Assembly (NCBI GenBank): GCA_043771335.1
Contig: JAYVHM010000007.1
Span: forward strand, 3,625 to 67,624
Origin: a bacterium
GTDB lineage: Bacteria; Patescibacteriota; Minisyncoccia; Phycocordibacterales; UBA5272
Length of the DNA stretch: 64,000 nt
Direction: 5' to 3'
The notes beneath the pieces were generated by a model. It made no database searches. It was given only the letters and a program-made list of their open reading frames with translations, and had not been told where the DNA came from. This document shows positions 5,044 to 58,211 of this stretch, one piece after another. The translations under genes were made by a program, and so were the position numbers. The number at the start of each line of letters is the position of its first letter. Positions within the stretch are counted from its first letter, which is position 1.

Positions 5044-5781
5044 CTATTTTATTTTTAATGCTTGGTCTATTACTTTAGAGACATACTTCTCATCACGAGC
5101 GCCATTGATTACTGTTAGTATTCTGTATTCTCTGCCTTCATTAATCAGGACAAAAGTGTTTGGTGTGCCCTGAACACCAACCTCTAATCCATCAGACAAA
5201 TCTTCTTGTACTGCAGCAGCGTAAGTGCTACTTGCCATACAATTATTCCATTTGTTTCTATCTACACCCAAATCCTTTGCCATCTGTTCTAAGCTACTGA
5301 GTTCCAGACTGTCATTGCCATTCGTTGTTTCAAATATTTTTGTTATGTATGCTTTATAAGCATCATTACCACCTATAGATCTGACACAAAGAGTCGCCTC
5401 AGATTCTTTTGGTGCTTTTTTATGTATAGAGAGTGGGAAGTGTCTGTAGGCTATTCCTATACTATCTTTGTATTTAGAATAAATATTTTCCATAGTCTCA
5501 ACATGAAACTTTTTACAAAAAGGACATTCTAGATCTGAGTATTCTACCAGAATCACTTTTCTATTCTTGTTACCGATCATGAATTCTTCTTGTTTTAATT
5601 CTCTCCCAGAAAATATTGTATCAGGGTCTATAAAGTTAGTGTTTTTAACATAATTATTACCAGCAAAAGAATATATAATTGCTATTGCTATTATAATAGC
5701 ACCTGTAGTTATTGCTAAAAAATTATTATTAACTTTCTTTGTTTTTGAGTGTGCCTCACTTTGTGATGTTGTGTGTTCCAT
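5044..5781 (-). CDS. Membrane-anchored DsbA-family thiol:disulfide oxidoreductase
   Basis: N-terminal TM segment, thioredoxin-fold CPFC active site. Confidence 0.7.
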   Translation of the reverse strand: MEHTTSQSEAHSKTKKVNNNFLAITTGAIIIAIAIIYSFAGNNYVKNTNFIDPDTIFSGRELKQEEFMIGNKNRKVILVEYSDLECPFCKKFHVETMENIYSKYKDSIGIAYRHFPLSIHKKAPKESEATLCVRSIGGNDAYKAYITKIFETTNGNDSLELSSLEQMAKDLGVDRNKWNNCMASSTYAAAVQEDLSDGLEVGVQGTPNTFVLINEGREYRILTVINGARDEKYVSKVIDQALKIK

Positions 5782-11523: not shown

Positions 11524-11592
11524 TTGCGCCTGCATATCCAATAACAACCGCCATGCGCGAGTTAGTCTGTTAATTTTGCGCCCTCATCCCCA
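11524..11592 (+). repeat. Degenerate partial copies of the tRNA-Cys 3' half (three fragments)
   Basis: ttgcgcctgcatatcca, caaccgccatgcgcgagtt and ttgcgccctcatcccca repeat segments of the tRNA-Cys just upstream. Confidence 0.7.
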
Positions 11593-11701
11593 AAGAGACA
11601 GCATTTGACATCTCTTATAAAAAAGTGTATTATAGAAAAGTATTTAATAAAGGGTAGCAGTATCATTATTATTCATTTAGTTATTTAAAAGGAGAGAAAA
11701 T

Positions 11702-30330: not shown

Positions 30331-32805
30331 ATGAAATATTCAAAAAAATGGCTACAAGAATATATAGAAGAAACATTGCCAACAGATGAGGATGTGGAAA
30401 AAGCTTTGAATGCAAAAGCTTTTGAAGTAGAGGGAGTAGAGCATGTCGAGAGTGATAGTATTTTTGATATAAAAGTTCTGCCAAATAGAGCTCATGATGC
30501 GCTCGGTCACATAGGCATGGCACGTGAATTATCTGCTTGCCTTAATTTTACTTTTAACAATAAAATAGAAAAAGAAATAGAAGGAATAAAAAATAAAATC
30601 CTCGATAAGGAAAATGCTTTTGAAATAGCAGGCAAGAGAATAAATAAGACAGATAAAAAAATATCAGTAGACGTTGCAGATGAAAAAGCTTGCAGTAGAT
30701 TCATTACCATTAGAATAGATGGAGTAAAAGTTGGTGCTACTCCAGACTTTATAAAAACAGCCCTGAATAATATAGGTCAAAAAAGCATAAATAATATTGT
30801 CGACATTACTAATTATGTGCAATTCGTCCTGAATAAGCCAATGCATGCTTATGACGCTAATAATATTGAGAGTGGAATAATAGTTAGATACGCAGAAGAT
30901 GGAGAAAAGTTAGTAACGCTAGATGATAAGGAATTAATTCTAGATGAGAAAACTTTGGTAATAGCAGATCATAAAAAAGTCTTGGGACTCGCTGGTATAA
31001 AAGGTGGTAAATACTCTGGAGTGAGCGCAGATACTACGAGTATAATAATAGAAAGTGCGAATTTTGAACCGGTACTAATAAGAAAAACTAGTCAAAAATA
31101 TAATCTTAAAACAGATGCCAGTAAAAGATTTGAGAATGGTATATCAGATCAATTAATAGAAGATGGATTATATTACACATTAAAGTTAATTTTAGAAAAT
31201 TGTGCCAACGGTGAAGATGTTAAAGTCTCAGAAGTTACAGATGTTTTTAACAATAAAAAGAAAAATAAATATTTTATAGGTGTAACTCAAAATGAAATCA
31301 ATACTGTTCTGGGTAGTAATTTTGATAAAGCAGAAATAGAAAATACTTTTAAAAGATTAGGTTTTGAATATGAAGAGATAAATACTTTAGATTTTATTAA
31401 AAACAATATAGAAAAAGTAATGAGTGCAGAGTATAAAAATCCTTCTAATGTACAAAATGATGCACCAGAGTATTTCTCTTGTTCCTCACTTGTTTCTTAT
31501 TTATTTAGGGGTATCTGGTTACCTTCATTATCAATAGATAAATATGTTTTTTGTAAAAAAATAAGTGAGAGTGAAAATATTGAGGATTTAGAAAAAGATA
31601 ATATATTAAAATATGGTGACCTGATATTCGCAAATACTGGTGAAGGAAAAATAAGATATGAGAGTGTAGAATATATGCGTGGTACAAAAGTAGAAGCAGG
31701 CGCAGACCATGTTGGTATTTATATTGGTGAAGGAAAAGTATTACATGCTACAAAAGTTAAGGGTAGAGTAGCGATAGAAAGTATTGCTGATTTTAAAAAT
31801 GGTAGAAAGATTGTAGGTGTAGGTAGAGTGTCTGAAAACCTCGAAGAGAAAAGGTATATAGTGTATGTTCCGCATGAGAGACTGGATCTTAAAATAAAAG
31901 AAAATATAATAGAGGAGGTGGGGAGGATAATAGGCTATGATAAATTAATACCAACACTGCCAAAACTCATAAATGAAATAGGAGAGCAAAAAACAGGAAT
32001 CATAAACAAAGAATTATATTATCAAAATGTAATTAAAAATATCTTATTTAAAAATAATTATTCAGAAGTGATGGGTTATTCTTTTGTAGAAAAGGGTGAA
32101 GTGTCACTGTTAAAAGCAGCCAGTACCAAAAATAAACTTCGCACAAATATAAGTAATGGCATGATTGAGAGTGTGCAGAAAAATATAAATAATATGCCAC
32201 TGCTACAGATAGATACTGTAAAGGTATTTGAATTTGGAAAAGTTTTTGATAATGAAGGTGAACATTTTAATCTTTGCATTGCTTGTGATGATGGGAAAAA
32301 GAAAAGTAATTTTGCTGAAAATGTAGATCTTGTGCTTGGTGAAATAAAAAGTAATTTAAAGCTTGAGAAAATAGAATATGAAGTAAAAAATGTAAAGCCT
32401 TATATAATAGAAATTGATTTTGATAATATGTTAAGTAGTCTTAATGCAGAAACCGAAAATATCTTTTTATCAGGTGAATACACAAATAAAAATATTAAGT
32501 ATAAATCATTTAGCCAAATGCCATTTATTATTCGTGACGTAGCTTTTTGGATTGAGGAGAGTAATGAATTATTAAAAAACAAAGATAGTATTTCAGAAAT
32601 GATAAAAGAGAATGCAGGAGACCTGTGTATGGAAGTGGTAAAATTTGATGAATTCAAAAAAGAAATAGATGGAGTACAAAAAATATCTTTAGGATACAGA
32701 TTAATATACCAGTCTTTTGAAAAGACGTTAACTGACGAAGAGGTGAATGTTCAAAGTGATAAAGTTTATGAAAAGCTAAAAGAAATCGGCTTGGAAATAA
32801 GATAG
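30331..32805 (+). CDS. pheT: Phenylalanyl-tRNA synthetase beta subunit, lacking N-terminal OB tRNA-binding domain, with NlpC/P60-like domain inserted in B5
   Basis: N-terminus MKYSKKWLQEYIE, B3/4, B5 (LGF..VYVPHERLDL..IEEVGRIIGYD), catalytic-like and C-terminal FDX-ACB-like regions; residues about 351-508 match NlpC/P60 motifs. Confidence 0.9.
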   Translation: MKYSKKWLQEYIEETLPTDEDVEKALNAKAFEVEGVEHVESDSIFDIKVLPNRAHDALGHIGMARELSACLNFTFNNKIEKEIEGIKNKILDKENAFEIAGKRINKTDKKISVDVADEKACSRFITIRIDGVKVGATPDFIKTALNNIGQKSINNIVDITNYVQFVLNKPMHAYDANNIESGIIVRYAEDGEKLVTLDDKELILDEKTLVIADHKKVLGLAGIKGGKYSGVSADTTSIIIESANFEPVLIRKTSQKYNLKTDASKRFENGISDQLIEDGLYYTLKLILENCANGEDVKVSEVTDVFNNKKKNKYFIGVTQNEINTVLGSNFDKAEIENTFKRLGFEYEEINTLDFIKNNIEKVMSAEYKNPSNVQNDAPEYFSCSSLVSYLFRGIWLPSLSIDKYVFCKKISESENIEDLEKDNILKYGDLIFANTGEGKIRYESVEYMRGTKVEAGADHVGIYIGEGKVLHATKVKGRVAIESIADFKNGRKIVGVGRVSENLEEKRYIVYVPHERLDLKIKENIIEEVGRIIGYDKLIPTLPKLINEIGEQKTGIINKELYYQNVIKNILFKNNYSEVMGYSFVEKGEVSLLKAASTKNKLRTNISNGMIESVQKNINNMPLLQIDTVKVFEFGKVFDNEGEHFNLCIACDDGKKKSNFAENVDLVLGEIKSNLKLEKIEYEVKNVKPYIIEIDFDNMLSSLNAETENIFLSGEYTNKNIKYKSFSQMPFIIRDVAFWIEESNELLKNKDSISEMIKENAGDLCMEVVKFDEFKKEIDGVQKISLGYRLIYQSFEKTLTDEEVNVQSDKVYEKLKEIGLEIR

Positions 32806-32811
32806 AAAATG

Positions 32812-32820
32812 TGTTATAAT
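32812..32820 (+). promoter_or_regulatory. TGTTATAAT extended -10 element upstream of tRNA-Ser fragment
   Basis: tgttataat. Confidence 0.45.
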
Positions 32821-32849
32821 AGATTAAATTAAAAAATATTTTTTAATTT

Positions 32850-32898
32850 GGAGACATGGCTGAGTGGCAACTAAAAGTAGCGGCACCTCAGTGGTGAG
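32850..32898 (+). repeat. Truncated duplicate of the 5' half of tRNA-Ser(GCT)
   Basis: ggagacatggctgagtgg..ggcacctca matches ggagacgtggctgagtgg..ggcacctca of the intact gene 56 nt downstream; no T-arm or 3' acceptor. Confidence 0.7.
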
Positions 32899-32905
32899 TA
32901 TAATA

Positions 32906-32991
32906 GGAGACGTGGCTGAGTGGTCTAAGGCACCTCACTGCTAACGAGGCGACCCGTCAACGGTCCGAGGGTTCGACTCCCTCCGTCTCCG
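32906..32991 (+). tRNA. tRNA-Ser (GCT), type II
   Basis: Acceptor ggagacg/cgtctcc, anticodon loop ctGCTaa, long variable arm, T-loop ttcgact; -10 tataat 7 nt upstream. Confidence 0.85.
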
Positions 32992-33006
32992 CTGAAAACA
33001 AATTTC

Positions 33007-33774
33007 ATGAACCTAATTTTAAATAAAGATTTGGCTAAGGACTACAGTAATCTTTCTCAAAAAGCTAGAGTAATGACAGAAGACTGGGTTTTGAACGAAA
33101 TATATTGCCCAAGTTGTGGCACTGTTATTTATAGTTATATAAATAACAAACCAGTCGCAGACTTCTATTGTAAAAAATGTTTAGAGGATTTTGAGTTAAA
33201 ATCTAAACAAGATAAAATTGGGTCTAAGGTTTCCGCAGGAGCTTATTCAAAAATGATTGAGAGAATTAATTCCAAAGAAAAACCAAATTTTTTCTTTATG
33301 AGTTATTTATTAAAAGTTTCAAGTGTTAATGATTTTTTTATTGTCCCGAAACATTTTTTTATACCTGAGATAATTGAGCAAAGAAAGCCACTAGCAGAAA
33401 GTGCTAGGCGAGCTGGTTGGATAGGTTCAAATATTTTATTCTCAAAAATACCGAAAGCTGGGCAAATTTTTTATGTAGAAAATGGTAAAATTTTTGATAA
33501 AAAAGAGGTTTTAGAAAAATGGCAAAAAACATTGTTTTTGAAAGAAGTAAAGAAGCCTGAAGCTAGAGGATGGATTTTAGATGTTATGAACTGTATAGAC
33601 TCTCTAAACAAGAAAGAGTTTACGTTGAAAGAAATTTATGAATTTGAAAAAGATTTATTAAATATACACCCTAAAAATAAAAATATTAAACCAAAAATTA
33701 GACAGCAGTTACAATTTTTAAGAGATAAAGGTTATTTAGAGTTTTTAGAGCCAGGTAAATATAAATTAAAATAG
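33007..33774 (+). CDS. DpnI-like methyl-directed (Type IIM) restriction endonuclease
   Basis: Near full-length similarity to R.DpnI: SQKARILTEDWV..YCP.CG, RPVADFYC..C.EEFELKSK, NPNFFF, RKPLA..ARRAGWIG.NI, KIRQQLQ.LRDK. Confidence 0.85.
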   Translation: MNLILNKDLAKDYSNLSQKARVMTEDWVLNEIYCPSCGTVIYSYINNKPVADFYCKKCLEDFELKSKQDKIGSKVSAGAYSKMIERINSKEKPNFFFMSYLLKVSSVNDFFIVPKHFFIPEIIEQRKPLAESARRAGWIGSNILFSKIPKAGQIFYVENGKIFDKKEVLEKWQKTLFLKEVKKPEARGWILDVMNCIDSLNKKEFTLKEIYEFEKDLLNIHPKNKNIKPKIRQQLQFLRDKGYLEFLEPGKYKLK

Positions 33775-33798
33775 TAAAAACCATGTTAAAATAGATGT

Positions 33799-34263
33799 AT
33801 GAAAATACACGAATTGGGGCATGTTGTTTTTTATGTTAGTAATTTAAAAACCTTAGCAGATTTTTATAAAAATACTTTAGGATTTAATGAGATACACAGA
33901 GACACGCATACTGCGTTATTTTCTTCTGGACGCACTCATCATGAATTACTACTAATTGAAATTGGCGGTGTCACAAAAAATATTAATAATCTGGGGGAAG
34001 GTACACATAAAATACCAGAGACAGGCCTGTATCATATTGGTTTTAAAATAGGGGATACTGATGAAGAGTTAAAAGATGCAATAAAAGAGTTAGCAGAAAA
34101 AGGCGTAAAGATAACTGGCTCAGCTAATCATCACGTCACTCATAGTCTGTATATAATGGATCCAGATGGTAATGAGCTCGAGCTGTATGTTGATGTCGAT
34201 GAATCATGGAAAAATGATAAATCTAAGATAGTAAAAAGGGCAGAAAGATTAGTTTTGGATTAA
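33799..34263 (+). CDS. VOC (glyoxalase/bleomycin-resistance/dioxygenase) family protein
   Basis: HVVFYV..L..FY...LGF, Y..DPDGNELEL motifs. Confidence 0.7.
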   Translation: MKIHELGHVVFYVSNLKTLADFYKNTLGFNEIHRDTHTALFSSGRTHHELLLIEIGGVTKNINNLGEGTHKIPETGLYHIGFKIGDTDEELKDAIKELAEKGVKITGSANHHVTHSLYIMDPDGNELELYVDVDESWKNDKSKIVKRAERLVLD

Positions 34264-34302
34264 AGGGGCTGCGGACTAGTATTTCCCATATTCTCTTGTT
34301 TA

Positions 34303-34311
34303 TGTTATAAT
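34303..34311 (+). promoter_or_regulatory. TGTTATAAT extended -10 element upstream of tRNA-Ile/murB/murA
   Basis: tgttataat 40 nt upstream of tRNA-Ile. Confidence 0.5.
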
Positions 34312-34350
34312 GTTTCTCATACACATACCTCTGCTGAGGCGTGTGTATAT

Positions 34351-34426
34351 GCGCGAATAGCTCAGCTGGTAGAGCACTCGACTGATACTCGAGCGGTCCT
34401 AAGTTCGAATCTTAGTTCGCGCACCA
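34351..34426 (+). tRNA. tRNA-Ile (GAT), CCA encoded
   Basis: Acceptor gcgcgaa/ttcgcgc, anticodon loop ctGATac, T-loop ttcgaat. Confidence 0.85.
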
Positions 34427-34428
34427 TT

Positions 34429-35511
34429 GTGAAAATTCTAGAAAATATAGAATTAAAAAAATACAGTACATTTTATGTGGGTGGCGTGTGTAAATACTTT
34501 ATAGAAATAAATAACAGAGAAGATATTGTTAATGCTTTTGATTTTATAAAATTAAAAAAAGAAGAAATAGAAATAGATGATTTTTACATATTAGGCATGG
34601 GCTCTAATACTATATTTTCTAATAATTTACACAGAACATGTATTTTAAAAATTAATATAAAAAATGAAAATAGTTTTGAAATAATAAATAATTCAAATCT
34701 CGAAAATAGAAATCTAGATGAAAATGTCTATGTAAAAGCTAATTCTGCTGAAGTTTGGGATGACCTAGTTTTATTTTCTTGTGAGAGTGGTTATTGTGGG
34801 CTAGAAAATCTATCTTATATACCGGGTCATGTCGGCGCTGCGCCAGTGCAGAATATAGGAGCATATGGAGTAGAAGCAAAAGATCTAATCAAGAATGTAG
34901 AAGTTTATAATGTAGAAAAAAACATTTTTGAAATACTAGAAAATAATCTATTAAATAATATAGAAGAAAATAATTTAGAATTTGAATATAGGGATAGTCT
35001 TTTTAAGAAAAATAAAAATAAATATGTGATATTAAGCGTAACTTTTCTTTTAAATAAAAATAAAAATAATCCTGATTCTAAATACGAAGGCTTAGATATT
35101 TTAGAATCAGATAGTCTGTTAGAGATTAGGAATAAAATAATAAATATTCGAAAAAGTAAATTACCAGAATGGAAAGATGTACCTAATTGTGGATCATTTT
35201 TCAAAAACCCTATAATTACAAAAGAGGAATTAGATTTTATTTTAAGTAAAAATAAAAGTATAAAATATTTTGAAGTTATATGTAAACAAGAAATAAAATA
35301 CAAGCTGTCAGCAGCCCAAATAATAGATTCCCTCAATATAAAAGGCTTAGAAATCGGCGGGGCAAAAGTGAGTCCTCGTCATGCATTAATAATTATAAAT
35401 GAAAACAAGGAAGCAACTTTTCAAGATGTTTATGATTTAAGTGAAGACATCTTAAGTAAAGTAACTAGCTTTTATAATATAATTTTAGAGAGAGAAGTTA
35501 ATATGTTATAA
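34429..35511 (+). CDS. murB: UDP-N-acetylenolpyruvoylglucosamine reductase MurB (GTG start 2 nt after tRNA-Ile)
   Basis: L..YSTF.VGG N-terminus (FAD-binding), IPGHVGAAPVQNIGAYG, C-terminal MurB domain. Confidence 0.85.
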   Translation: MKILENIELKKYSTFYVGGVCKYFIEINNREDIVNAFDFIKLKKEEIEIDDFYILGMGSNTIFSNNLHRTCILKINIKNENSFEIINNSNLENRNLDENVYVKANSAEVWDDLVLFSCESGYCGLENLSYIPGHVGAAPVQNIGAYGVEAKDLIKNVEVYNVEKNIFEILENNLLNNIEENNLEFEYRDSLFKKNKNKYVILSVTFLLNKNKNNPDSKYEGLDILESDSLLEIRNKIINIRKSKLPEWKDVPNCGSFFKNPIITKEELDFILSKNKSIKYFEVICKQEIKYKLSAAQIIDSLNIKGLEIGGAKVSPRHALIIINENKEATFQDVYDLSEDILSKVTSFYNIILEREVNML

Positions 35512-40468: not shown

Positions 40469-40498
40469 ATATTTTAAACTTTGTCTTTACAAAATTTT

Positions 40499-40545
40499 AG
40501 TGCGTCTACCGCTACTAATTTTTTTGCGCCACCTGGGCATATTTT
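40499..40545 (-). repeat. Degenerate duplicate of promoter-proximal 5' portion of tRNA-Leu(GAG)
   Basis: agtgcgtctacc...gcgccacctgggcatatttt repeats gtagtgcgtctacc..cgccacctgggcatatttt of the adjacent tRNA, with an insertion. Confidence 0.65.
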
Positions 40546-55956: not shown

Positions 55957-57105
55957 TTAAACATTGTTAACCTCTTCAAAACTCTCGTAGGATCCTATCT
56001 GTGCAAAGTCTATCTCATACTCTGTATCACTTATTTTATATATAATAACACTGTCTAAGCCAATATCTTCTAATTTTTTATAAGTTAAAAGCTCCCCTTC
56101 TTTCAAATTTAAAACATCTCTTAATATCCATTCTCCTAAAGCTTTGTTAGGATTACTCATCAAAGCTTTGCTCCCTTCTTGGCAGACTTTAACTTCTATA
56201 ATTTTTTTATTTGGTAGTTTTAGACTAAAAGGAGTATCTCTTTTTGGAAAAAAACCTTCATTTATTCTGTGTATCCAAGCTGGAATAGGGATATAAACTT
56301 CATCATAATTTCTTTCTCTTCCTGCAGCGTTCCACTGATTCAGTCCACTTTTTTCAGGAACTTCTTTTTGATCTTGTCCTGATCTTGTGGAATACAATGG
56401 TAAAAATATATGTTCATGAACTTTAATAGGTGAAAATAATAAAGTCTTTATCTCTGTTGGAGTGTCTTCAAATAATTTTTCTAAGACAGTGAATGGATCT
56501 TCTACAATCTCAACAGGTATTCTCATTAAAACATTTTCTGATTTAAAACGTTTTGACAAAGTACTCTTTGAAATATTAAAAGAATACTCTTCCTTATCAT
56601 CAGTAAAAGATATAGACTTATCTGAAAATGTTTTTATCTTTAAATTCGCCTTATCGATAGTATTCATTGGTGATTCAAAAACTTCCATAACGCCAGAGGA
56701 TCTTGTGACACAATGATAAATTATTTCTTCTAGACCATAGATTCTTTTTGTGGTTTCAATCCTTTCATTTCTTAGGCGAGAGATTTCTTGTACTTGCTCA
56801 TCTATAGGTAGGTTTCTAAACTTCGAGCTACTGGTGTTAAATTCAGCGACTTTCTCCATACCTCTTCCATTTCTTTTCAGAAAAGTTTTTAGACCAAATC
56901 CGACATTTCCGATAGAAGCATCAGCAGACGTATCTGACCGCGAAAGGTTTTCAGCATTAAAACTCTTACAAAATAAGTTTTCGGCAACTCTGTAATAAAG
57001 AAAAGGTTCCTGACTGTCAGAAGATAATTTTGAAAGACTGCCTATTATTTTAAGCATTTTTTCATAGTACTGAACCTGTATTTTGTTTTGTTGATTTATA
57101 AACAT
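55957..57105 (-). CDS. Putative Type II restriction endonuclease (cognate of adjacent C5-MTase)
   Basis: 382-aa ORF 4 nt downstream of and co-directional with a C5-cytosine methyltransferase; no general housekeeping motif; assignment by synteny. Confidence 0.5.
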   Translation of the reverse strand: MFINQQNKIQVQYYEKMLKIIGSLSKLSSDSQEPFLYYRVAENLFCKSFNAENLSRSDTSADASIGNVGFGLKTFLKRNGRGMEKVAEFNTSSSKFRNLPIDEQVQEISRLRNERIETTKRIYGLEEIIYHCVTRSSGVMEVFESPMNTIDKANLKIKTFSDKSISFTDDKEEYSFNISKSTLSKRFKSENVLMRIPVEIVEDPFTVLEKLFEDTPTEIKTLLFSPIKVHEHIFLPLYSTRSGQDQKEVPEKSGLNQWNAAGRERNYDEVYIPIPAWIHRINEGFFPKRDTPFSLKLPNKKIIEVKVCQEGSKALMSNPNKALGEWILRDVLNLKEGELLTYKKLEDIGLDSVIIYKISDTEYEIDFAQIGSYESFEEVNNV

Positions 57106-57109
57106 ATAT

Positions 57110-58090
57110 TTAACTTATTGCTTTGGCGATATTTTTTGCAACTTTTTCAATTACTGTGACAGTAACAGAGTTACCTGCTTGTTTATATATTTTACTATCC
57201 GATAGGTCCTTTGGAATCTTGTAACTCTTTGGAAAACCTTGAGCATTCAAACATTCCTTTGGAGTAAGTTTCCTTATACCTTTTTCATCAAGTATAAGAG
57301 GAACATTATGTCCACCTGTTCCCATGTTTGCAGTTAGTGTTGGGACGACCCCTTTTTTATTTTCACGAACGTACTGCCTGCGCCACTGGTAGGCGGTATT
57401 TTTTTTAATTATCTCATATTTTAATTTTGGGTATAGGGTAGAGTCTTTTTTATAGTAATATTTTTCTGGTATATCTTTCTCTAAAATATCTGCAATACTA
57501 ACTTTGAGAGTTGTTGGTTTTGGAAATTCAAATTTATCTATAGACTTTTTGTCTTTAAATCCAACAATGTATATACGTTCACGATTCTGTGGAACATTTC
57601 CGTATTCCATACTATTCATAACCTGAACTTTTATGTGATATCCATTAGCATTCAAAACATCTTCAATAATTTTAAATGTTTTTCCTCCATCATGACCTTT
57701 CAGATTTTTTACATTTTCAAGTAAAAATCCCATTGGTTTTTTAGTTTTAAGTATTTCTACTATATTCAAAAATTGATTACCTCTTTCAGTATCTTCAAAT
57801 CCTTTTCTGTACCCAGCTATAGAAAAAGGCTGACAGGGAAATCCTGCTAGCAGAAAATCAAAGTCTGGTAGAGTAGATGGTTTTATTTCTCCTATATCAG
57901 CGACTGTTAGTTGTGATGTTTTAAAATTTAAATCAAAAGTTATTTTACATGCTTTTTCTATATCATTTGAGAAAACAGTTTCAAATCCAGCATGTTCAAA
58001 ACCTAATCTTATACCTCCGATTCCAGCATAAAGATCTATGGTTTTAAATATTTTAGACTTTTTCATATGTATAATAATTTTAGCATACAA
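57110..58090 (-). CDS. DNA (cytosine-5)-methyltransferase, short HaeIII-like architecture
   Basis: Motif I LYAGIGG, IV GFPCQPFS, VI LLENVKNL, VIII QNRERIYIVG, X QAGNSVTV; start may be the internal Met at 58066. Confidence 0.85.
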   Translation of the reverse strand: MYAKIIIHMKKSKIFKTIDLYAGIGGIRLGFEHAGFETVFSNDIEKACKITFDLNFKTSQLTVADIGEIKPSTLPDFDFLLAGFPCQPFSIAGYRKGFEDTERGNQFLNIVEILKTKKPMGFLLENVKNLKGHDGGKTFKIIEDVLNANGYHIKVQVMNSMEYGNVPQNRERIYIVGFKDKKSIDKFEFPKPTTLKVSIADILEKDIPEKYYYKKDSTLYPKLKYEIIKKNTAYQWRRQYVRENKKGVVPTLTANMGTGGHNVPLILDEKGIRKLTPKECLNAQGFPKSYKIPKDLSDSKIYKQAGNSVTVTVIEKVAKNIAKAIS

Positions 58091-58130
58091 TTTATTTATT
58101 GCCTATATTATTTTTAGGTAAGTTACCTTG

Positions 58131-58211
58131 TGCCGAAGGAGGGACTCGAACCCTCACATCTTTCAATATTCGATTTTGAGTCGAACGCGTCTACCATTCC
58201 GCCACTCCGGC
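58131..58211 (-). tRNA. tRNA-Leu (CAA), type II
   Basis: Reverse complement: acceptor gccggag/cttcggc, anticodon loop ctCAAaa, long variable arm. Confidence 0.8.

Follow-up and report, generated by a model that had tools for sequence, protein, structure and literature searches.

A DpnI-type nuclease gene in a variable slot between two tRNA genes of a Patescibacteria-type genome

DpnI and DpnII of Streptococcus pneumoniae are alternative cassettes at one site, and Neisseria meningitidis carries a "dam-replacing" gene, drp. Here we describe a homologue of dpnI encoded in a 64-kb stretch of contig JAYVHM010000007.1 (GenBank assembly GCA_043771335.1); this whole stretch is referred to below as the window. 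The window has a GC content of 32%, and its nearest named PheT and DpnI homologues bear Patescibacteria labels (Paceibacteria/Parcubacteria type). The gene lies between the genes for tRNA-Ser(GCU) and tRNA-Ile(GAU), and we consider it quite probable that it encodes a functional Type IIM endonuclease of the DpnI family, placed in an integrase-free, tRNA-flanked variable defence slot.

The closest described enzyme is R.DpnI of Streptococcus pneumoniae (Type IIM; PDB 4ESJ/4KYW). The window protein has the same two domains, 48% identity, an identical catalytic triad, the zinc cysteines, and the residues concerned with GATC, with methyl groups and with the winged helix. It differs in that its gene is followed by one for a VOC protein, with no dpnD-like partner, stands between two tRNA genes and belongs to a Patescibacteria-type host, and in that its activity is predicted. 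At the level of the locus, the likeness to pneumococcal DpnI/DpnII and to drp is that of one site with conserved flanks and alternative defence cassettes; in other Patescibacteria, moreover, dpnI abuts truncated Dam-class methylase genes. Unlike in the pneumococcus, the alternatives here are a PDC-S14 candidate and an island of methyltransferase, AAA and GmrSD genes, the flanks are tRNA genes, and exchange by transformation is something that we infer. The locus also resembles the tRNA-proximal genomic islands of streamlined genomes, such as Prochlorococcus islands and tycheposons (preprint 10.1101/2020.12.28.424599): a small genome has variable, defence-rich genes beside a tRNA, and partial copies of tRNAs occur close by. 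In contrast to those islands, this locus has no integrase or other element hallmark, its slot spans only 1-5 kb, and its partial copies, found outside the slot, are conserved from relative to relative.

The DpnI-type open reading frame and its homologues

The open reading frame (ORF) at 33007-33774 (+) starts with ATG, encodes 255 amino acids, and is intact and full length. Both domains by which the DpnI family can be recognised, the catalytic domain and the C-terminal winged-helix domain, are found at full length: Pfam model DpnI (PF06044) matches with 3.6e-74 over profile positions 1-182 of 183, and DpnI_C (PF17726) with 1.3e-33 over positions 1-69 of 70. R.DpnI (PDB 4esj) aligns with residues 2-253 at E=1e-79, with 48% identity over 252 amino acids, and PADLOC model mREase_II ("Type II methyl-directed restriction enzyme") matches with 2.9e-104. 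An earlier interpretation of the window, made without database searches and called here the sequence-only reading, had described the ORF as DpnI-like; both Pfam domains, the similarity to 4esj, the PADLOC match and the retention of all key residues bear this out, and the sequence blocks it quoted are present with small differences (KPVADFYCKKCLEDFELKSK, not RPVAD...EEFELKSK, and KPNFFF, not NPNFFF).

The residues that we take to be the PD-(D/E)XK triad of R.DpnI (D53, E64 and K66) and its zinc cysteines (C34, C37, C56 and C59) are all found in the window protein and are invariant in an alignment of 76 homologues. Residue numbers are those of 4esj, set so that the residues named in PMC4117772 match its letters. 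In R.DpnI, Q18, N48, R126 and R135 read the bases of GATC, while L129, R135 and W138, against which G140 packs, form the cleft for the two N6-methyl groups, and K229 and R231 are functional residues of the winged-helix domain (PMC4117772). Every one of these is present in the window protein, and every one is invariant among the 76 homologues. D78 of R.DpnI is replaced by A in the window protein; the contact made at D78 is by the main chain. Between dpnI of the window and its syntenic copy in a related genome, L082, the nonsynonymous divergence (dN) is 0.085 and the synonymous divergence (dS) 0.875; dN/dS is low, at ~0.1, and dpnI is therefore under purifying selection. The predicted protein thus carries all the defining features of the DpnI family that can be tested in a sequence, and the best-supported prediction of its function is that of a DpnI-type, Gm6ATC-dependent Type IIM nuclease.

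A methyl-dependent nuclease had been taken to imply a host that lacks Dam methylation, and a search for dam-type methyltransferases had been proposed on that account. Within the 64-kb window, the part of the genome covered by this search, no D12 or N6_N4 methylase was seen, nor any (D/N/S)PP(Y/F/W) motif in ORFs of at least 150 amino acids; the sole methylase in the window is a 5-methylcytosine (m5C) enzyme at 57110-58090. GATC occurs 108 times, against 151 occurrences expected from a Markov model (observed/expected 0.71, compared to 0.52 for GTAC), values that are uninformative about methylation. With 108 GATC sites in the window, Dam methylation would therefore be self-destructive.

In some other Patescibacteria, dpnI adjoins what is left of a methylase gene. 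Its start directly follows a D12 methylase ORF that ends at position 198 of the 253 in the profile at three loci (L008:5254-5997, L011:5260-5997 and L038:5314-5982), and at L026, L039 and L041 it comes after fragments of N6_N4 methylases. At all six, the upstream gene seems to be what a dpnI cassette left of a dam-type gene when it replaced it, as would be expected after a "Dam-replacing" event; the Pfam name for PF06044 is "Dam-replacing family".

Seven loci from metagenome-assembled genomes of Bacteroidota/Chlorobiota (L070:1160-3917 and, like it, L061, L071, L073, L076, L080 and L081) have the gene order dpnM-like, dpnI-like, often dpnD-like, and dpnA-like (the N6_N4 methylase), and their DpnI-family proteins keep every methyl-pocket residue. 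The D12 methylase of this type of locus matches PDB 2dpm with 4.4e-49, its ORF lacking the last ~15 residues at the shared junction, and several of the loci contain broken methylase or nuclease ORFs. Such an arrangement has the look of a cassette halfway through replacement, or else of an epigenetic conflict.

Among the candidates scored in a protein search, more than 7,000 were members of the family, and ~120 of the best had 71-84% identity to the window protein; the few named ones among these ~120 carry Patescibacteria labels. In all, metagenome-assembled genomes of Patescibacteria supply hundreds of homologues with 70-84% identity. Eighty loci were compared, each from one representative genome per species, and the best ~50 of them come from Moranii-, Nomura-, Kaiser-, Staskawicz-, Taylor-, Campbell-, Woese- and Magasanikbacteria and the like. 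Rarity in reduced-genome lineages, from which such enzymes had been said to be not commonly reported, is not supported by this survey: DpnI homologues are abundant, not rare, in Patescibacteria. At none of the 80 loci does pheT, VOC or murB lie near the DpnI homologue, and no particular tRNA is consistently adjacent. The window dpnI has no conserved partner across the 80 loci; the small neighbours that recur at other loci, namely the NTP-transferase-like c101, the DpnD-like c127 and c162, are absent here. DpnD-like genes follow DpnI homologues only in other loci; the window locus contains no DpnD-PcfM gene, and no DpnII-type cassette was seen at the slot in the genomes compared. No full-length DpnI homologue was found in the phage collection, and a literature search found no paper on DpnI in Patescibacteria. 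One DpnI homologue with 78% identity lies in a defence island (L083:8084-14065) that consists of AbiEii, DpnI, a gene of 108 amino acids, an OLD-family AAA/TOPRIM gene and DUF4365, with a large serine recombinase nearby.

A variable slot between tRNA-Ser and tRNA-Ile

The genes and sites around dpnI are arranged in the order efp (-), pheT, promoter-like site, palindrome, leader, tRNA-Ser(GCU), dpnI, VOC, promoter-like site, hairpin, tRNA-Ile(GAU), murB and murA. Those that matter for the argument are as follows.

30331-32805 (+): pheT, upstream of the slot
32791-32820 (+): sigma-70-type promoter-like site, TTGGAA-18-TATAAT with a TG extension, 10 of 12 matches; conserved in L082, L111 and L118
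32826-32849 (+): perfect A/T palindrome of 12+12 nt at the start of the leader, found by inverted-repeat search and folding; conserved in L082 and L111
32850-32905 (+): mimic of the 5' half of tRNA-Ser, the "truncated copy" of the sequence-only reading; alignment z=14.5
32906-32991/2 (+): tRNA-Ser(GCU), left border of the slot, no encoded CCA; ARAGORN, and Rfam tRNA at 52.1 bits
33007-33774 (+): dpnI homologue with PD-(D/E)XK and winged-helix domains; Pfam, 4esj and PADLOC
33799-34263 (+): VOC protein (glyoxalase/bleomycin-resistance/dioxygenase fold), 154 amino acids; Glyoxalase PF00903, 1.5e-16
34283-34311 (+): promoter-like site for tRNA-Ile and murB, TTCCCA-17-TATAAT with TG; conserved in L082, L111 and L112
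34319-34348 (+): hairpin in the tRNA-Ile leader with an invariant UGCU loop; z=-4.3 (L082 z=-7.0), compensatory changes in four genomes
34351-34426 (+): tRNA-Ile(GAU), right border of the slot; ARAGORN and Rfam

The ATG of dpnI lies 15 nt past the discriminator base of tRNA-Ser, just as had been stated, and a spacer of 24 nt separates dpnI from VOC. As a sign of insertion the 15-nt gap loses its force, since murB starts 2 nt past tRNA-Ile (with GTG, at the position of an ATG in L111); genes directly behind tRNAs are therefore normal in this genome. Strong promoter matches are found only at 32791-32820 and 34283-34311, and no terminator was found between tRNA-Ser and dpnI. A convincing promoter specific to dpnI is missing; most likely, the gene shares a transcript with tRNA-Ser that starts from the site at 32791-32820, the only good promoter candidate for either of them. 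A compositional anomaly of the dpnI segment was considered and dropped, as comparison of GC content (28% in dpnI, 33.5% in VOC and 25% in murB, with 32% in the window) gave no signal.

Relatives were found by BLASTP with PheT in a larger protein database, and the contigs of the closest ones were compared; a scan of metagenomes with PheT gave only relatives of at most 54% identity, with different synteny. The arrangements at the locus are listed here.

L110/L111 (GCA_043718735.1; PheT 74% identical by BLASTP, 78% in the codon alignment), the nearest relative; in L111: promoter, leader copy, tRNA-Ser, PDC-S14 candidate, VOC, promoter, hairpin, tRNA-Ile, murB
L112/L113 (PheT 67%): tRNA-Ser, EcoRI-like methylase, AAA ATPase, Bro-N protein, GmrSD/HNH Type IV-like nuclease, tRNA-Ile
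L082 (GCA_043773045.1; PheT ~60%): relB-like gene and toxin remnant, tRNA-Ser, dpnI (84% identical), 170 nt, tRNA-Ile; no VOC
L118 (PheT 68%): tRNA-Ser, terminator, OmdA-domain gene in opposite orientation
L119 (PheT 62%): tRNA-Ser, then infC-rpmI-rplT

Defence cargo occupies the stretch after tRNA-Ser in three of its six observed states. Between the same pair of genes, tRNA-Ser(GCU) and tRNA-Ile(GAU), lie dpnI in the window and in L082, the PDC-S14 candidate in L111 (a protein of 283 amino acids with GIY-YIG/DUF4357; PADLOC 1.3e-91), and the methyltransferase/AAA/Bro/GmrSD set in L112. The stretch directly after tRNA-Ser is a turnover site, and the locus works like a site for alternative cassettes. 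The two carriers of dpnI, the window and L082, fall on different sides of the grouping based on PheT, so that either the slot has been overwritten several times or dpnI has been exchanged. An attempt to date the dpnI transfer by dS was abandoned, the values of 0.6-1.7 being saturated.

Comparison of synteny at tRNA-Ser had been proposed as a way to see whether dpnI and VOC form an indel. The content of the segment does differ between relatives, but there is no dpnI-VOC unit. VOC is 89% identical to its counterpart in L111, where it follows PDC-S14, and it is preceded by its own -10-like box, TGTTAAAAT, common to the window and L111. Rather than a passenger of dpnI, as had been supposed, VOC is a resident neighbour that travels with the locus and is not part of the dpnI cassette, for the nearest relative has it next to PDC-S14, and L082 has dpnI without it.

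The slot itself, at 32993-34350, holds dpnI and VOC only, with no integrase or recombinase. The 3' end of tRNA-Ser, searched for with up to 3 mismatches, has no second copy in the 64-kb window, and none of the four slots searched (those of the window, L082, L111 and L112) contains a stretch similar to tRNA-Ser or tRNA-Ile. With an integrase and a bracketing tRNA repeat both looked for and neither found, the locus is not of the integrase/att island class, att being the attachment site of such an element.

Several other features of the locus and its surroundings deserve record. Between pheT and the tRNA-Ser promoter, L082 (1798-2290) has a gene for a RelB-like antitoxin, followed by a 42-residue remnant that resembles the C-terminus of a RelE/YafQ-type toxin; neither is present in the window. 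The hairpin of the tRNA-Ile leader (window 34319-34348 (+), L111:5014-5043, L112:13999-14028 and L082:3396-3425) has stems that vary but stay paired (CCUC/GAGG, CUUC/GAAG, and all-A/U in L082). The PheT of the window (30331-32805 +) has an inserted NlpC/P60 (C40 peptidase) domain at residues ~350-500, which is found in all 120 best homologues, some of them annotated as "C40 family peptidase"; the more distant L104-L108 are without residues ~350-500. About half of the 13 tRNA genes in the window encode CCA (Cys, Leu-UAA, Leu-UAG, Tyr, Ile-GAU and Arg-UCU), and Ser-GCU, Lys, Val, Leu-GAG, Arg-GCG, Ile-UAU and Leu-CAA do not. Directly downstream of tRNA-Leu(CAA), at 58130-58211 (-), and co-oriented with it, a Type II restriction-modification pair occupies 55957-58090 (-): the m5C methylase (PF00145, 1.5e-85; 57110-58090) and an NgoFVII-like endonuclease (PADLOC REase_II, 1.5e-101). 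This pair is a second defence cassette behind a tRNA.

Partial tRNA copies in tRNA leaders

The leader of tRNA-Ser contains a partial copy of the tRNA. Positions 32850-32867 agree with tRNA-Ser positions 1-18 at 17 of 18 sites; a 14-nt insert, CAACTAAAAGTAGC, comes next, and then GGCACCTCA, with 9 of 9 matches. The parts represented are the 5' strand of the acceptor, the D-arm with the insert, and the 5' strand of the anticodon stem, closed as a small hairpin. Local alignment with tRNA-Ser gives a score of 38, whereas 200 shuffles reached 18 at most (z=14.5), and the copy is real, far beyond chance. The truncated 5'-half copy reported in the sequence-only reading is confirmed in this sense, but its extent is corrected: the copy is gapped, and reaches ~32905, not 32898. 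It stands upstream of the intact tRNA-Ser, with ~7 nt between the two, on the side away from dpnI, and dpnI is therefore not bracketed.

In L082 the copy is ~85% conserved, including the insert that is not of tRNA origin, as are the promoter and the palindrome, despite a dS of ~0.9-1.3, near saturation, in the neighbouring genes. Copies of one type, A (insert CAACTAAAAGTAG), are found in the window, L082 and L112, and those of another, B (CAAAGTTTTGCAG), in L111 and L112, so that L112 has both in tandem. L119 has a further variant, and only L118 is without a leader copy. A change of GGCA to AGTA in the tRNA-Ser of L119 is mirrored in its leader copy. Leader copies in relatives were located at L115:5243-5283, L119:8526-8570, L111:3461-3521 and L112:8976-9097. 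An Rfam scan of 32500-34600 at E<=1 returned the two tRNAs only, the leader copy matching no known RNA family; RNAalifold gave five leader copies a weak consensus of -6.3 kcal/mol with no compensatory pairs, and thus no covariation support for a fold. A literature search found no paper on pre-tRNA leaders in Patescibacteria. Old and conserved, the partial copy of tRNA-Ser belongs to the tRNA leader and has nothing to do with the arrival of dpnI.

Two other tRNAs of the window, tRNA-Leu(GAG) and tRNA-Leu(UAG), likewise have a copy of their own 5' half between the promoter and the mature tRNA.

40498-40538 (-): 5'-half copy of tRNA-Leu(GAG), insert CAAAAAAATTAGTAGC; z=12.1, conserved in L115
12832-12873 (+): 5'-half copy of tRNA-Leu(UAG), insert CAGATTTCAGTAGG; z=6.0

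The inserts of these copies are 14-16 nt long, end in AGTAG(C/G/T), and occupy the same D-loop position as in the tRNA-Ser leader; the motif common to the Ser and Leu inserts is CAA...AGTAG. In L115, tRNA-Leu(GAG) and its leader copy both have GCCTGGG, not GCCCAGG (CA>TG). Neither of the Leu leader copies is beside defence genes.

Across all loci compared, a significant 5'-part copy was found in 13 of 64 upstream flanks and a significant 3'-part copy in 6 of 67 downstream flanks, a polarity that held in 19 of 19 cases. We do not use this polarity as evidence of nested insertion, as local tandem duplication over a gene edge gives an equal polarity; it says only that partial copies arose locally. 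Among the downstream 3'-half copies are those of tRNA-Cys in the window (11546-11593 (+), with a 7-nt insert in the T-loop) and of tRNA-Ile in L111 (5131-5186, 10 nt past the gene), with further ones in L012, L022 and L025. At tRNA-Glu of L045, exact copies of positions 1-37 lie upstream (5305-5341) and of positions 38-75 downstream (5560-5597).

Persistence in deletion-prone genomes, a shared insert and the co-variation of copy and tRNA suggest function or continual gene conversion. We put forward, tentatively and as a possibility that is on balance doubtful, that the leader copies form an undescribed class of cis-acting leader elements of class-II tRNAs (Ser-GCU, Leu-GAG and Leu-UAG) in Patescibacteria. 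If functional, such elements could compete for the 3' acceptor strand of the tRNA or bind a processing factor, in which case the leader would control the maturation of the tRNA and also the expression of the gene behind it, here dpnI.

Explanations for the locus, and what it means for Patescibacteria

If the protein acts as its homologue R.DpnI does, fully methylated Gm6ATC would be recognised both by the PD-(D/E)XK domain at the N-terminus and by the winged-helix domain at the C-terminus, with cleavage inside the site. Such an enzyme would destroy incoming phage, plasmid or bacterial DNA that carries Dam-type methylation, and the host would have to keep its own GATC sites, of which there are 108 in 64 kb, free of methylation. 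Processing of the tRNA 3' end would free a dpnI mRNA with a 15-nt leader. The simplest way for the slot to turn over would be recombination within the conserved tRNAs that flank it, much as DpnI and DpnII are exchanged in the pneumococcus.

Several points weigh against this interpretation. The methyl dependence of the nuclease is predicted from homology and conserved residues, and the mode of cassette turnover is one that we infer. No Shine-Dalgarno sequence is visible for dpnI. Between the window and L082, dS is 0.88 for dpnI and 1.32 for pheT, saturated values that cannot date a transfer. In Bacteroidota loci such as L070, finally, a DpnI-family gene with the same residues lies between complete-looking genes for a DpnM-like and an N6_N4 methylase, and either co-occurrence with methylases is not automatically barred or those methylases are inactive.

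The sequence-only reading saw in the partial tRNA copy the footprint of an att site, or a duplication made on insertion, by which dpnI, perhaps with VOC, would be the cargo of an integrase-mobilised island in tRNA-Ser. Such an island would account for a dpnI directly beside a tRNA gene, a partial copy of that tRNA, and a slot whose content varies between relatives, and incomplete copies of a tRNA are a classic mark left by integration (PMC9897764; preprint 10.1101/2020.12.28.424599). Known partial copies are attributed to the integration of elements, an attribution that does not fit here because the geometry differs: the fragment is a 5' one upstream of the intact tRNA, and the two copies enclose nothing, dpnI standing outside the pair. 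Moreover, the search for the tRNA-Ser 3' end and the search of the slot for tRNA similarity in four genomes found nothing, the slot has no integrase among its two genes, and VOC is common to the genome with PDC-S14. The leader copy persists with other cargo, and similar copies precede tRNA-Leu(GAG) and tRNA-Leu(UAG), away from defence genes. The island is very improbable, and already largely refuted.

There might, alternatively, be a DpnI-family protein with altered specificity or with a housekeeping role, such as the degradation of foreign DNA for nucleotide salvage. Patescibacteria depend on imported nucleotides, the homologues are unusually conserved (70-78% identity) across many Patescibacteria classes, and the family members flanked by seemingly intact genes for a DpnM-like and an N6_N4 methylase would be in keeping with such a role. 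We nevertheless think it unlikely, as every residue by which R.DpnI reads GATC and its methyl groups is invariant, the contexts are defence islands and variable slots, and the distribution is patchy among close relatives in the way typical of defence genes. It is hardly credible that dpnI is in decay and no longer serves a function: it is a solitary gene, lacking the small partners (DpnD-like, c101 and c162) seen beside many homologues, but its ORF is intact with all key residues, its dN/dS against L082 is ~0.1, and compact genomes lose useless DNA. A functional DpnI-type endonuclease in a variable slot remains the explanation that we prefer.

The nuclease is a new member of a known, textbook enzyme family, and by itself adds little. 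The leader copies, if functional, would be a new regulatory feature of tRNA operons, and are a more unusual by-product of this analysis than the nuclease. For the organisms concerned, the broader meaning lies in abundance and in turnover. In these tiny, CRISPR-poor genomes, DpnI-type nucleases rank with the more frequent and better conserved genes for defence, and public annotation already names many Patescibacteria homologues. Their abundance implies that Dam-methylated invaders are a regular threat, and that the hosts avoid GATC methylation. A slot of 1-5 kb that turns over its defence cargo without an integrase suggests how streamlined and probably transformable bacteria may shuffle their immunity genes.

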